Assembly (NCBI GenBank): GCA_964016885.1
Contig: OZ024747.1
Location: 4,402,001 to 4,466,000, forward strand
Direction of reading: 5' to 3'
From: Eledone cirrhosa
Lineage: Eukaryota
Length of the DNA stretch: 64,000 bases
The notes under the pieces were generated by a model. It saw only the letters and a list, made by a program, of their open reading frames with translations, made no database searches and was not told the origin of the DNA. Positions 13,886-59,080 of the stretch are shown in pieces. The position numbers were made by a program, and so were the translations under genes. Every line of letters starts with the position of its first letter. Within the stretch, counting starts at the first letter, position 1.

Positions 13886-14136
13886 TATTTAATTAGAAAG
13901 TGAACAACACAAAATATAACTACTCCATTACCAAAGGTTTCTGGATCCCAGACAATATTAATATACGTCTGGATCAGTCATCAGACAGAGATGTTATGGA
14001 TAAAAAATATGAAATGAGATTTATTTCATATTTTTTCATGATGACCGATCCAGACGTATATTAATATTGTCTGGGATCCAGAAACCTTTGGTAATGGAGT
14101 AGTTATATTTTGTGTTGTTCACTTTCTAATTAAATA
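13886..14136. repeat. Inverted repeat, 98-bp arms, 1 mismatch
   Basis: 13886-13983 is the reverse complement of 14039-14136; abuts (TA)n. Confidence 0.95.
13923..13990 (-). ncRNA. Type I hammerhead ribozyme motif overlapping the left arm of an inverted repeat
   Basis: cucugu-CUGAUGA-(long gauccagac/gucugggauc stem II)-GAAA-ccuuugg-UA-auggag; base of stem II non-canonical. Confidence 0.6.
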
Positions 14137-15224
14137 GCTCTGTTCTATACATAGAGTACTCTTTTTTCCTTTGCTTTTTCTTTGGAATTACCTAACACAC
14201 ACACACATATAAATATATATATATATCATCATCATCACCGTTTTACGTCGGTTCTTCCACGCTAGCATGGGTTAGACGGGTTGTCCTGTTGTGGGCAGTG
14301 TCTGGTCGGCTGACCATGCCTTGCTCATACAGGAACTGATCTGGCTTGATTTCTACAGCTGGATGCCCTTCCTAACACCAACCTCATTTACAGTGAGTGC
14401 TGTAATATATATATATATAGAGTGTTATTACATAATCTACATAGTGTTAACTCATTACGGTTGAGTCAATAATTTCAGACATGAAATACATTGTTATTGG
14501 TGAAGGAAAGATAAGATTCTAACTGGCTGTTCTCAAAGTATCCTTGACCTAGTTGACTGTGGGTTTTTCCATTTTTAGGATCTCAATTACTGGTTAATGT
14601 CTCAAGTACCGGACACGCCTGCACACCTGCTCACAGCTGTGGTCAGACTATAGTTATTCTGTCTGCAAGCTCATTCAAATGCATTCACACTGGCTGTCTC
14701 AAAGACATACAAATATGGCTTATAAAACTTACCAAAATAAAGAGCCTTCCAGCACGCCCCTAATGGGACCTTGCTCCCAAACGCCTCCCTGGAGTTCCCA
14801 AATGCCCCCCCGGGGGTGTATGCCCCCTGTTGAGAACCTTTGTTTTAGACTATGATCTTGCTAGATGCCATATTCAATGGGTTTTGTTAATTATATCAAT
14901 ACCAGTACTTAGTCTGGTAATCCTAACAAGTGGCTAAGTTTTACCAGAGTTGCTTCCCTTGTCAGAATTACCTCCCGTTCACTAGTATCACTTTGAAAGT
15001 AATTATTCTAATGTCCACCAGAATGCACTTAAATACATGCATACCTACATGACTTTGTGGTTAGGGTATTCAGTGTCTTGGTCAACCAATGAACTTTTCA
15101 GCCAACCTGGTGTAATTTATGTTGGTTCTTTTAAGTCACCATTCCTAATTGGTGCCAATATACGCCATATTAAATGTTATGATTACTATCAAATAATAGA
15201 GAAATGTGTATATATACGCATATA

Positions 15225-15426
15225 TGTGATGCGCATGAAAGACGACAGCTGTATAACAAAGTGCAGGGCAATAAAGATAGACGGTAGCCACAGAATAGGC
15301 AGACCCAGAAAAACCTGGGACGCGCTGATAAATTCTGACCTCACACACTTACACCTCTCCAAGACAATGTCACTGGACCGAGACCTTTGGCGGTACTCAG
15401 TAATAGAGAAGACCCGCCTTACCTAA
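15225..15426 (+). mobile_element. RTE-clade LINE 3' fragment
   Basis: VMRMKDD...GRPRKTWD...DRDLWR. More decayed RTE-like pieces at about 19260-19570, 25100-25400, 32780-33120 (inverted halves), 41790-41935 and 47100-47260. Confidence 0.8.
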
Positions 15427-18400
15427 ATACAAAGTAAAACCTACTACAGCCAGTAGACATCTCTAACAAAATACCCCCCACCCCCACCCCACCCCATCCA
15501 CACCGCCCCTTCAATGTAAAGTTATGTTGGTGCCACAACATCCAGGCCGAAACAAATGAGATCGTGTAGGTGTCACGACAAAAAACACACAGTCCACGCT
15601 GTAATGTGGCCGTGTAGGCAACACGGTAAAAACCTGCCAGCCCCACACTGTAAATGTGGTTGGTGTTAGGAAGGGCATCCAGCTGTAGAAAACCCGCCAG
15701 ACAGTCCTATACGAGCAAGACAATCACTCTTGCCTCAAGTGGGAAAACCCCCGTCCAAACCCATGCAAGCGTGGAACACGGACGTTAAACGTTGATGATG
15801 ATGATGATGATGATGATGCTTTGCCAGACAGAAAGTATCATTATCAACCTCAGGTTCTTGCCACATGTCACAATTTCATCTCCACTGTCAATTCCAGCAC
15901 TTTCAAATCAGTTCTCACCACTTCTACCAAAGTCTTCCTTGGCTTTCTTCTACTGTTGCTCCCTTCCACTGTATGGAGATATTTCTGAGACTACAGATAA
16001 AATCTATGAAGTATTCACTGTTTAAAGGCCAAAAAGTTAAAAAAATCAGGGTATATTAGTTTCCATGGTGTTTATAGATATAAAGTATAGCTTCAACAGA
16101 GAGCCTTTCCCATTTCTTCTCATTATGAAGCCTCATCGGATGTATCTATGATTACCTTGAAAGTTACCTCTGATGAGGCTTCATGGAGACCTGAAACAGA
16201 GTTGGACCTCTGGTGCAACTATAACTCACACACACACATATATATAACGTGTGTGTGTATGTGTGCGTGTATATATATATATATGTGTTTGTATTTATGA
16301 ATGTCTGTGTTTATGTATGTATACATACATACACATAATACATAAACACATACAAACAGACACCACTACATTTTTTTATTATACAAATGAGTACATAGAT
16401 ATTTACACCTGTTTGGCAGGTGACTTGAGTCAACTTATAATGGAAAGGGGTTATTTTTTTCAAGCAAGAAAAAAAAAGCTGGTTGCCTGTTATTTCAGAG
16501 AAAGTACAAGAACATGAAATGTTAACATCTATTTCTACAGAACATGGTGTGCTATTAAAAAATATAGTACAAAAAATAAACCAAAATCAAACCCATATCA
16601 AATCCTTCTAAGAAAAGCACAGCCTATGTACTGTGTATGTATATATATATATATATATATATACACTATATATATATATATATATATATATATATATATA
16701 TATATATATATATACACTATATACATATATATATATATATATATATACACTATATACATATATATATATATATATATATATATATATTGGTATTCTCTGA
16801 TACTAGATCCTATATAACCCTGCTTTTATCTCTATTTTTTATTTTATTTTATCTTATTTTATTTTATTTTTCTTATGGTGGTGGAAGGACTGGTTTAATG
16901 TTTAAATTTATATTTTAATTATTATTATTATTATTATTATTATTCTCATTATTATTCTCATCATCATTATTATTACTATTATTGGGTTTTTTTTAGTTTT
17001 AGTTTTTTATTTCTTTTTTTTTTGTATCCCAGTTAAGGTTTCTGCACCTAAAAGTAATTCTAAACCTTGCTTTATTTCTCCCCTCCCCCTCCCTACCCCC
17101 CTCTCTATTTTTTAGGTTTCCCTTCAAGGAAGTTACACATTTTCTATTTATTGTTCTTCTTATTCTTATTCTTCCCATTTTTTCCTCTACTCATTCTCTT
17201 TCTTGCTTTCATTTGGTTCATTTGTTTTGTTCTTTCTGTATTGTAGTAGTAGTAGTAGTAGTAGTAGTAGTGGTGGTGGTGGTGGTGGTGGTAGTAGTAG
17301 TAGTAGTAGTAGTAGTAGTAGTAGTAGTAGTGGTGGTGGTGGTGGTACTGGTAGTAGTAGTAGTAGTAGTAGTAGTAGTAGTAGTAGTAATGGTAGTAGT
17401 GGTGGTGGTTGTAGTAGTAGTGGTGGTGGTGGTGGCAGTGGTGGCAGTGGTGGTAGTGGTGGTGGTGGTAGTAGTGGTAGTGGTGGTAGTAGTAGTGGTG
17501 GTGGTAGTAGTAGTGGTGGTTGTTGCTGTTGTTATTGTTATATGTAGTAGTGGTGGTGGTAGTAGTAGTGGTAGTAGTAGTGTTATATCTAGTAGTAGTA
17601 GTGGTGGTGGTGGTAGCTGTTGCTGTTGTTATTGTTATATCTAGTAGTAGTAGTGGTGGTGGTGGTTGCTGTTGTTATTGTTATATCTAGTAGTAGTAGT
17701 AGTAGTAGTGGTGGTGGTGGTAGTTGTTGCTGTTGTTATTGTTATATCTAGTAGTAGTAGTTGTAGTAGTTGCAGCAGTAGTAGTAACAGTAGTAGTGGT
17801 AGTAGTTGTTATTGTTATATCTAGTAACAGTAGTAGTTGTTGTTATTGTTATATCTAGTAGTAGTAGTAGTAGTAGTAGTAGTAGTTGTTGTAGTTGTTA
17901 TGTGTAGTTAGCTATTTTTATTCAAACAGTCGACTAATTTAGATCTGACTATTTAAAAGTGGAAGTACTTGTATATTTAAATCAATAATACGTGAATGAG
18001 CAGGTTTCTGTGTGTGTGTGTGTGTCCATGTATAAGTGTGTGTATGCATGCATCCATGCATGTGTGTGTATGTGCATGTGTGTATGTGCATGTGTTAAAT
18101 GTAGGGAAAATAATAAGGATGTAACAATAAGAAAAAAAATAATAACAACAATAATAATAATGTAATGAAAGTAGGAATTGAGCACAAGGCTAAAATATAC
18201 ATTCAATTTCTTTTCATATTATTTGTTAATTTATATATATATATATATATATATACTCACACACATGTGTATAAATATATGTATTTTTCTTTTTGGTGGA
18301 GGAAAGTTGGAGGTGTGGTGGGTGTAGAGAGGGGGGCTTGTATTTATTTTGTTTTTAATTTCGTTTTTATTTGTTTATTTATTTATTTATTTATTTATTT

Positions 18401-58192: not shown

Positions 58193-58557
58193 ATATACAA
58201 TGATATTAAATAAATGGAAACTATATTTATAAAACCATATTTATTCTATTATATATATTTCAAGGGCACCAAAATTTTGGTACACTATCATCAGATAAAA
58301 TACGAAGTGTGTTTTATAAATTTTGCCAAGGAGAATATACCTTAACGGTTCAAGTTTTCCTTGGATAGTTTTGGACTATCCAAGGAAAACTTGAACCGTT
58401 AAGGTATATTCTCCTTGGTTATGTCAAAAGTTATAAAACACACTTCGTATTTTATCTGATAATAGTGTACCAAAATTTTGGTGCCCTTGAAATATATATA
58501 ATAGAATAAATATGGTTTTATAAATATAGTTTCCATTTATTTAATATCATTGTATAT
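58193..58557. repeat. Long palindrome, ~177-bp arms, 5-nt loop
   Basis: 58193-58369 vs 58375-58557, with one internal mismatch/indel patch and one substitution at 58461. Confidence 0.95.
58242..58302 (-). ncRNA. Type I minimal hammerhead motif with palindromic loop III
   Basis: uauuuuau-CUGAUGA-uagug uaccaaaauuuuggug cccuu-GAAA-uauaua-UA-auagaaua; 8-bp stem I. Confidence 0.6.
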
Positions 58558-58783
58558 TATACTCCAGAAAATCTGTCGAGTGCTCTGAATCAGTTATAAA
58601 CATTTATATTTGTTGAATTACCAACAAATTGAATATCCCTTCTGCTTATATATATATATATATATATATATATATATATATATATATATATGACCAAAGA
58701 TTAGTATGGTTCATTGATTACTCAATGAATACAATTTTACAATAGATTAGAAGCACTCAAAAGAGGTTTTCCTGGAGTTTTTA

Positions 58784-59080
58784 ATATTATTCAAAATATT
58801 AACAAATGAAAAATATTCTCATAATCAAAATATATACTTTATTATATATATTTCAAAGGTACTGTGTTGTTTTTTCAGTACGTTCTCATCAGACAAAATA
58901 ATGACTGCCAATACTGGAATTGAATAATCAAGACCGTAGCAGTATGTCATATATCAAATCATATATTTTGTCTGATGAGGACGTACTGAAAAAACAACAC
59001 AGTACCTTTGGAATATATATAATAAAGTATATATTTTGATTATGAGAATATTTTTCATTTGTTAATATTTTGAATAATAT
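58784..59080. repeat. Inverted repeat, 117-bp arms, 63-nt spacer, 2 mismatches
   Basis: 58784-58900 vs 58964-59080. Confidence 0.95.
58835..58900 (-). ncRNA. Type I minimal hammerhead motif with palindromic loop III
   Basis: uauuuugu-CUGAUGA-gaac guacug...caguac cuuu-GAAA-uauaua-UA-auaaagua; 8-bp stem I. Confidence 0.65.

Follow-up and report, generated by a model that had tools for sequence, protein, structure and literature searches.

The 64,000-nt stretch of the 3.0-Gb Eledone cirrhosa genome analysed here (assembly GCA_964016885.1, contig OZ024747.1, positions 4,402,001 to 4,466,000 of the forward strand; hereafter "the window") contains a number of long inverted repeats, several of which carry a predicted hammerhead ribozyme. 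Our analysis indicates that these are probably stubs left by head-to-head insertions of Penelope-like elements (PLEs) of the Hydra clade, together with one retrozyme-like passenger, which would arise when both ends of a cut (TA)n target prime on the front of an uncut RNA and the resulting cDNAs run off its start and join. The observations behind this reading are that the arms belong to multi-copy families, that families B, C and F (and less firmly A) are linked to open reading frames (ORFs), that outer junctions lie at TA repeats and fall at two positions, with one tail per insertion, that inner ends pile up, and that copies read through the ribozyme site. The families themselves are new members of a known clade, and their footprint is known as well; they are found genome-wide and have no demonstrated role at this locus.

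Stub architecture and outer ends

The features discussed below are the following (window positions):

1797..1990, family E head-to-head stub; tailed arm on the minus strand, with its far end at 1797 and its tail hairpin at 1828-1849; tail-less arm on the plus strand with a degenerate hammerhead core at 1925
13886..14196, family A stub; tail-less arm on the minus strand with near end 13886, tailed arm on the plus strand (14040-14196, tail 14137-14196)
13923..13990, minus strand, predicted type I hammerhead of family A; 6-bp stem I, two mismatches at the base of stem II, GUA site
16125..16185, short single-copy hairpin, outside the system as far as the evidence goes
22421..22895, family D stub (438-nt retrozyme-like unit); minus-strand arm with the hammerhead, split by a short interspersed element (SINE) at about 22450-22590; plus-strand arm with a tail to about 22895
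22691..22740, minus strand, predicted type I hammerhead of family D; 8-bp stem I, 3-bp stem III, GUC site
28610..28800, family H decayed stub; tail hairpin 28662-28684 on the minus strand, hammerhead core lost at the inversion
49378..49556, family F stub; the inversion splits the hammerhead (cores at 49422 on the minus and 49429 on the plus strand), tail hairpin 49499-49518
58195..58646, family C stub; arms start at the putative +1 base (58369 minus, 58375 plus), near end 58195, tail 58557-58646 with hairpin 58561-58581
58242..58302, minus strand, predicted minimal hammerhead of family C; 8-bp stem I, AUAU loop III, UA site; core of the plus-strand arm mutated
58691..59080, family B stub; tailed arm on the minus strand (58691-58900), tail-less arm on the plus strand from the putative +1 base 58904
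58761..58765, minus strand, hypervariable stretch of the family B tail hairpin, which also varies in independent contigs
58835..58900, minus strand, predicted minimal hammerhead of family B; 8-bp stem I, AUAU loop III; GAAA of the plus-strand arm mutated

The five long inverted repeats of the preliminary description were recovered at 1856-1987, 13886-14136, 22420-22862 (SINE-split), 58188-58561 and 58784-59080, and two further stubs that it had overlooked lie at 28610-28800 and 49378-49556. Its view that the repeats are unrelated in sequence fails for B and C, which have stem I/III and downstream sequence in common; the hairpin that it added at 16125-16185 exists but has a single genomic match and no complete hammerhead, and the core that it placed in every repeat is degenerate in the 1925 motif (U16.1 changed). 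Four window arms (A, B, C and D) were searched genome-wide, with 40 candidates scored per arm. Arm A (13886) has 1904 candidates in the genome, B (58784) 1050, C (58195) 590 and D (22640) 358, and the best matches are 96-100% identical.

In every family the outer ends fall at two fixed positions. The near end is located a few bases ahead of a bulged hairpin, and the far end follows after another 60-90 nt. The GAGTRCTC-like motif that had been noticed near the repeats is real, and is the 3' strand of this bulged hairpin in the one-sided tail. A word like GAGTRCTC is also present in the Hydra DNA record printed just before Hydra-1_Obim in the PMC8557442 supplement. The TA flank stands as well: far ends lie within 3 nt of a TA or other dinucleotide repeat in 84/92 cases for B and 29/32 for C (8.7% of the window is within 5 nt of (TA)3 or longer), those of A often adjoin (CA)n, and in independent short-read contigs the near end meets TA. 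A second hairpin just past the far end was looked for in family F and not seen; a motif resembling it stands there some 100 nt beyond. The (TA)n tracts are often common to different families, which then stand tail to tail (for example window 58647-58690, L009, L014 and L115), and this sharing of one tract explains why the stubs cluster.

The two outer ends are used in a nearly strict combination. Among head-to-head insertions of A, B and C, 68 of the 71 classifiable pairs have one near and one far end, and hence a single tail (76 pairs were tallied, 5 of them unclassifiable; p = 2.5e-17 against the 50% maximum under independent choice). Eleven loci had been dropped from this tally beforehand, namely ten re-fetched insertions and L006, which has the window's junction, and D was excluded because its near end is ragged. 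A held-out set of 61 loci seeded on the tail, of which 7 were unclassifiable and 19 had no inverted arm within 1.5 kb, gave 32 one-tailed insertions out of 35. These insertions thus show the inverted 5'-truncated copy and the one-sided tail that make up the insertion architecture of endonuclease-positive (EN+) PLEs. Either arm may be the long one, and the tail-less arm reaches further 5' at L010, L013, L018, L030, L035, L045 and L156-L158. Rare variants are shared 4-6 times more by the two arms of one insertion than by arms of different insertions, which gives weak support to a single template.

The family B palindrome at 58691-59080 and L006 (G000:C7:4045651-4046060) have an identical odd junction that occurs in exactly these two places, 415 kb apart. 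The two are 97% identical, their flanks are unrelated, and their loops differ at 4 of 5 bases; either re-retrotransposition of the whole palindrome or gene conversion could account for the pair.

Coding parents, hammerheads and inner ends

For family C, walking upstream reached the GIY-YIG end of an ORF, and 27 of the 30 best loci for this protein end (one of them the seed) have the window's C end downstream on the same strand. A far-upstream probe for B found a Hydra-type ORF upstream at 20/30 loci, the B end downstream at 25/30, and both at 17/30. Family F forms a partial tandem in L319, where it sits between the end of one ORF and the start of the next. With A, a Hydra-type ORF was found upstream at 0/30 loci with a near probe and at 3/30 with a far one, a long microsatellite-rich untranslated region lying between. 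The ORF link thus covers B, C and F, and more weakly A; D, E and H are not tied to an ORF. The ORFs have SDKT at the DKG position in B, C and F (the A region was not recovered), and the ORF pieces of A, B, C and F, read by eye, contain the CxCX5C linker, lack CCHH, and have the CxxC and CxH motifs flanking conserved E and N. The N-terminal RWK position reads RWR in F, and the B, C and A copies end before reaching it. DKT, CxCX5C and the absence of CCHH are Hydra-clade features (PMC8557442). Atlas matches carry RVT_1, GIY-YIG and HTH_animal, and a Pfam scan of the Hydra fragment recognised no domain. By their sequences, then, B, C and F are the ends of ORF-bearing Hydra-clade PLEs, and A probably is another.

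The Penelope-like origin that had been proposed for the repeats is borne out, as the arms are multi-copy and linked to reverse transcriptase (RT)/GIY-YIG ORFs and the helices covary between families; single-copy arms, a missing ORF link and a lack of covariation, named beforehand as evidence against that origin, were not what we found. The elements had also been described as non-autonomous. This does not hold for B, C and F, which have coding parents, and probably not for A; it fits D. Family D is a 438-nt unit in which no ORF was found, and 11 of its 28 loci continue past the far end into the next unit, head to tail; in sequence it fits a non-LTR (long terminal repeat) retrozyme-like unit. 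Being continuous with coding parents, B, C and F are not the non-coding tandem units that define retrozymes. An ORF that stands beside two D copies was considered as the parent of D and rejected, as it belongs to family F. The genome also harbours a very abundant Neptune-like PLE (L091:2204-5760; 18,660 candidates, open frames up to 790 aa) that ends in (TA)n and has an inverted 5' copy, two ends and a tail of about 40 nt, and whose end is without a CUGANGA core; this 790-aa family was rejected as the parent of every element in the window.

The preliminary description counted four complete type I hammerheads with a stem I of 6-8 bp, two of them with an AUAU loop III, and a sequence descriptor likewise finds four, two of them with that loop. 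Three motifs with an 8-bp stem I (58892, 58294 and 22732, all minus strand) satisfy it strictly, against 0-0.01 per shuffle in 200 shuffles, and when two mismatches are allowed at the base of stem II a fourth appears (13984, minus strand, 6-bp stem I), with three matches in total in 100 shuffles. The bare CUGANGA core shows no enrichment in the window (23 observed, 23-25 expected). The core CUGANGA, GAAA, UH and three helices are all present, stem I pairs covary between families, and loop III is a different palindrome by family (AUAU, GCGC, GAUC or AAUU); the hammerheads of E are intact at other loci in the genome. We regard all of these as predicted self-cutting motifs. Penelope hammerheads were reportedly described in 2014. 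A sample of 40 evenly spaced 10-kb stretches of the genome gave 14 complete motifs, and 20 shuffles of the same 400 kb gave one. This corresponds to an average of 2.2 per 64 kb, and to about 100,000 predicted hammerheads in the genome (Poisson range about 57,000-176,000); the window is typical, its four hammerheads being no clear excess.

The preliminary description placed the inversion breaks at or beside the hammerhead core, and this is so in A and E and, by inspection, in F; the arms of B and C end about 68 and 81 nt upstream of it. Inner ends cluster in every family so analysed, with 16 of 39 arms in a peak at -72..-61 in B, 28 of 40 at -82..-67 in C and 23 of 36 at -14..-8 in A. The upstream edge of each cluster is sharp and falls on one A (position -68 in B, -81 in C and -13 in A, taking the ribozyme core as reference), within an initiator-like word, TCACT in B and C and CCATA in A. 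Held-out B copies repeat the pattern, with 36 of 79 inner ends in the peak, 12 exactly on the base and 3 past -100. In B a TATA box starts 32 nt upstream of the pile-up base, and the spacing is about 31 nt in B and E; in E the box stands 36-37 nt before the core in four long copies, and 19 other copies match these for at most 6 nt upstream of the core (one of the 19 is a long copy with a variant box). In the window's own C palindrome both arms start on the putative +1 base, 5 nt apart. Inner ends do not accumulate at the ribozyme cut site, and partner-arm breaks at -12..+8 of the core number 3/15 in A, 1/13 in B (TA-only matches dropped) and 1/21 in C. From these sequence patterns we infer that the pile-up base is where transcription begins; in A and E, whose breaks lie near the core, these breaks likely reflect the start of the RNA and not the ribozyme.

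The events may then be pictured as follows. Transcription would start at the pile-up base, inside the pseudo-LTR, and the GIY-YIG nuclease of the element would cut both strands of a (TA)n target. Priming from one DNA end would take place immediately 5' of the conserved tail hairpin, and from the other end 60-90 nt further 3', with both ends using a single RNA or sitting within one asymmetric complex, and both cDNAs would reach the RNA 5' end or stop early and be joined bluntly or through microhomology. In B the far-primed cDNA would likely be rewritten at the hairpin loop, as synthesis stalls, untemplated bases are added and copying resumes. Cleavage as dimers, through the palindromic loop III, is predicted for the hammerheads of B, C and F; the hammerheads do not set the breakpoints. 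The resulting stubs, lacking TATA box and ORF, are likely dead ends.

The variable tail loop and alternative readings

The tail hairpin of family B has a loop that differs between nearly all insertions. Between two conserved flanks, 58 distinct loops were found in 61 independent insertions (70 were fetched and nine dropped as DNA duplicates or already seen). A first sample had given 28 distinct loops in 31 rows, two of which were the same locus, and of 197 exact-flank matches genome-wide, the 100 matches listed contain 83 distinct loops, counted by eye. In neighbouring columns the median departure is 3% of copies. The same positions vary in independent short-read contigs, and the variable front, 1-7 nt long, is T-rich in the sense strand and so A-rich in the cDNA. 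A tail of B or C that continued into element sequence was not found, so internal and terminal loops cannot be compared. Family H shows a further variable patch, about 10 nt long and immediately ahead of the near end (for example L016, L017 and L056), which may reflect subfamilies or another copying scar. No report of a variable tail loop or of run-off stubs was found in the literature searched, whose coverage leaves aside most subscription journals.

Most likely, the B loop is written at the time of insertion, when the far-primed RT passes through the hairpin. As a tentative proposal, both ends would prime on one RNA at two fixed sites, and the telomerase-related RT started at the far site would meet a break or block at the tail hairpin, add untemplated bases and jump, giving a random barcode of 4-10 nt to each insertion. 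The main rival is re-cutting of the DNA: the variation would arise after insertion, when the nuclease cuts the tail again or the hairpin is repaired, or it would descend from many old master copies. We hold this to be possible if somewhat doubtful. As reported in PMC11167929, recognition by the Drosophila nuclease depends on the tail and the anole protein cleaves its own junction, and TTTTC, found in 7 of the 61 loops, is a fold-back copy of the adjacent GAAAA. DNA duplicates that are 96-99% identical over about 3 kb, and so have drifted by 2-4%, nevertheless keep their loops; all four members are identical in one set, and a second set of four differs at one base, a point in favour of change after insertion. 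Unrelated insertions, on the other hand, differ by 0.55 edits per base and have no majority loop, and loop distance is uncorrelated with distance over the rest of the element (Mantel r 0.03, p 0.37), though this is a crude test on ungapped cut-outs of 37 copies.

For the stubs as a whole, the nearest alternative is that one self-priming cDNA folds back to give the inverted arm and a nuclease resolves the second end at the near site. Palindromes at the inverted junctions of rotifer elements have been read as self-priming in PMC3846280 and the tail as nuclease-mediated resolution in PMC8557442, and here the two arms share some private variants. The tail-less arm is, however, often the longer one at its 5' side while only the short arm is tailed, which means that neither can have been copied from its partner; since either arm may be longer, simple fold-back cannot explain all cases. 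It is refuted as the sole route, and in general we consider it improbable. The preliminary description had favoured non-autonomous retrozyme-like families, inversions set by the ribozyme and functional double-stranded RNA (dsRNA) hairpins seeded in the protocadherin locus. The head-to-tail loci of D would suit this, as would the breaks of A and E next to the core and the one stub that adjoins a protocadherin exon; the coding parents of B, C and F, the few partner-arm breaks near the core with no pile-up at the cut site, and a hammerhead density (4 against 2.2 per 64 kb) close to the genome average all speak against it, leaving the seeding of dsRNA hairpins in this locus unsupported and the whole a very improbable account. 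That the palindromes are DNA transposons, of the miniature inverted-repeat (MITE) or foldback type, or assembly artefacts is scarcely credible. Terminal inverted symmetry and TA flanks are what such transposons would show, but the junctions vary between copies, the arms are unequal and their asymmetric ends lead into parents that encode RT and GIY-YIG, which refutes that origin, and independent short-read contigs contain both the near end at TA and the loop variants, which argues against artefact.

Several observations nevertheless weigh against head-to-head priming and insertion-time loop writing as we have presented them. The mechanism is assembled from patterns in DNA, its RNA 5' end, cleavage and transcription all being inferred. 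A search of RNA sequencing runs with 58195-59080 listed none that contains this segment, a result that counts neither for nor against transcription. The arms of one insertion still differ at 3-5% of sites, and gene conversion could also produce their shared variants. The Neptune-like family has the architecture without a core, so the architecture does not need a ribozyme. The loop of C is only moderately variable (22 distinct in 35) and those of A, E, F and H are not hypervariable and retain a modal loop; the crudeness of the Mantel test is to be counted here also. C and A have no canonical TATA at -31, and the inner-end distribution of A is censored on one side, as its seeds had to reach -6. 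When a cap is copied an extra G is expected; such a G was seen at 15/50 breaks and 9/47 control breaks (p 0.03), a difference that did not replicate in held-out copies (2/15 and 6/22, p 0.27), and the partner arm accounts for several of the extra Gs. As to the ribozymes, the Rfam hammerhead models, with which the preliminary description proposed to check them, gave no match among the best 150 of 289 matches of a general scan or in further targeted scans (the 58294 motif fell only within the former), and minimum-energy folds of monomers and dimers lacked the active hammerhead fold. Stem II begins with mismatches in A, C and D, and the canonical G10.1-C11.1 pair is replaced by G-U, U-U, A-A or C-A. 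Because Rfam and minimum-energy folding miss the motifs, their assignment rests on the descriptor and on covariation between families.

Genomic setting and relation to known elements

The D palindrome begins directly after a large protocadherin exon with cadherin repeats (19964-22423, plus strand), around which microsatellites lie. An RT fragment (RVT_1) of a long interspersed element is at 23788-24801 on the minus strand, and a unit of about 33 nt forms a long tandem array at about 3600-8000 that is open in several frames. A frequent SINE-like repeat occurs at 22450-22590, 23460-23636, 26096-26263, 50145-50283 and 51133-51306; one copy interrupts the D arm and another makes a palindrome of its own. 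tRNA-like pieces below the Rfam cut-off are present at 10517-10574 and 57135-57192. A small hairpin at 49223-49306 has a CUGACGA core and a 58-nt exact duplicate nearby (46979-47058), and no relatives of it were found among the fetched loci.

The architecture, clade, target and ribozyme of these elements are already published (PMC8557442, PMC3846280). The Hydra clade described by Craig et al. (2021, PMC8557442) includes Hydra-1_Obim of Octopus bimaculoides, which targets (TA)n, and its members, like those studied here, have a C-terminal GIY-YIG domain without CCHH, DKT, CxCX5C, a hammerhead in the end and a (TA)n target, as well as an adjacent inverted 5'-truncated copy and a tail that is often at one end only. 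The printed N-terminus of Hydra-1_Obim visibly resembles the family F ORF, but its listed hammerhead differs, so the window families are not Hydra-1_Obim itself. Tails are given there as 30-40 bp, against about 60-90 nt here in A, B, C, E and F, and we found in the accessible text of that paper no one-tail counts, initiator pile-up of inner ends or variable loop such as are reported here. The Poseidon element of Anolis has been studied in vitro (Frangieh et al. 2024, PMC11167929). There, the RT starts at two internal sites that bound the tail, each strand of the target is cut and then extended, the template is mainly uncut RNA and targets are AT-rich, all of which fits the mechanism proposed above; Poseidon is of a different clade, and no difference in start site between its strands is reported, whereas our insertions nearly always have one near and one far end.

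Family D resembles the animal non-LTR retrozymes (PMC7229834; bioRxiv 10.64898/2026.07.22.740005) in its non-coding head-to-tail unit, type I hammerhead and stable stem III, but its copies are mostly dispersed, with inverted and tailed ends of the Penelope type; A, B, C and F differ from retrozymes in being ends of coding elements. The number of hammerheads per genome, about 100,000 here, matches the axolotl figure of up to 120,000. Penelope of Drosophila virilis and the elements of Adineta vaga (PMC2377424, PMC3846280) likewise have a promoter in the pseudo-LTR and head-to-head inverted repeats, and in Adineta a TATA box and a TCACT initiator-like word are reported, as here. The D. virilis promoter is internal and TATA-less, whereas in B and E the TATA box lies upstream of the putative start and is lost from the stubs.

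How Penelope-like inverted repeats and the one-sided tail originate is a stated open question (PMC8557442, PMC11167929). The stubs described here supply coordinates for it, in the form of a putative RNA start and a pair of putative priming sites, as well as a one-tail rule that is nearly strict, and their value lies in such mechanistic counts and in one unexplained feature, the loop particular to each insertion. The roughly 100,000 predicted hammerheads, together with many short palindromes, are a large potential source of dsRNA across the genome, with no function demonstrated at this locus. If the proposed origin of the B loop is true, it points to a discontinuity of copying at the tail hairpin and is a direct trace of tail making; B loops would then be natural barcodes that separate retrotransposed copies from DNA duplicates, and Penelope-like retrotransposition would include a sequence-diversifying step.

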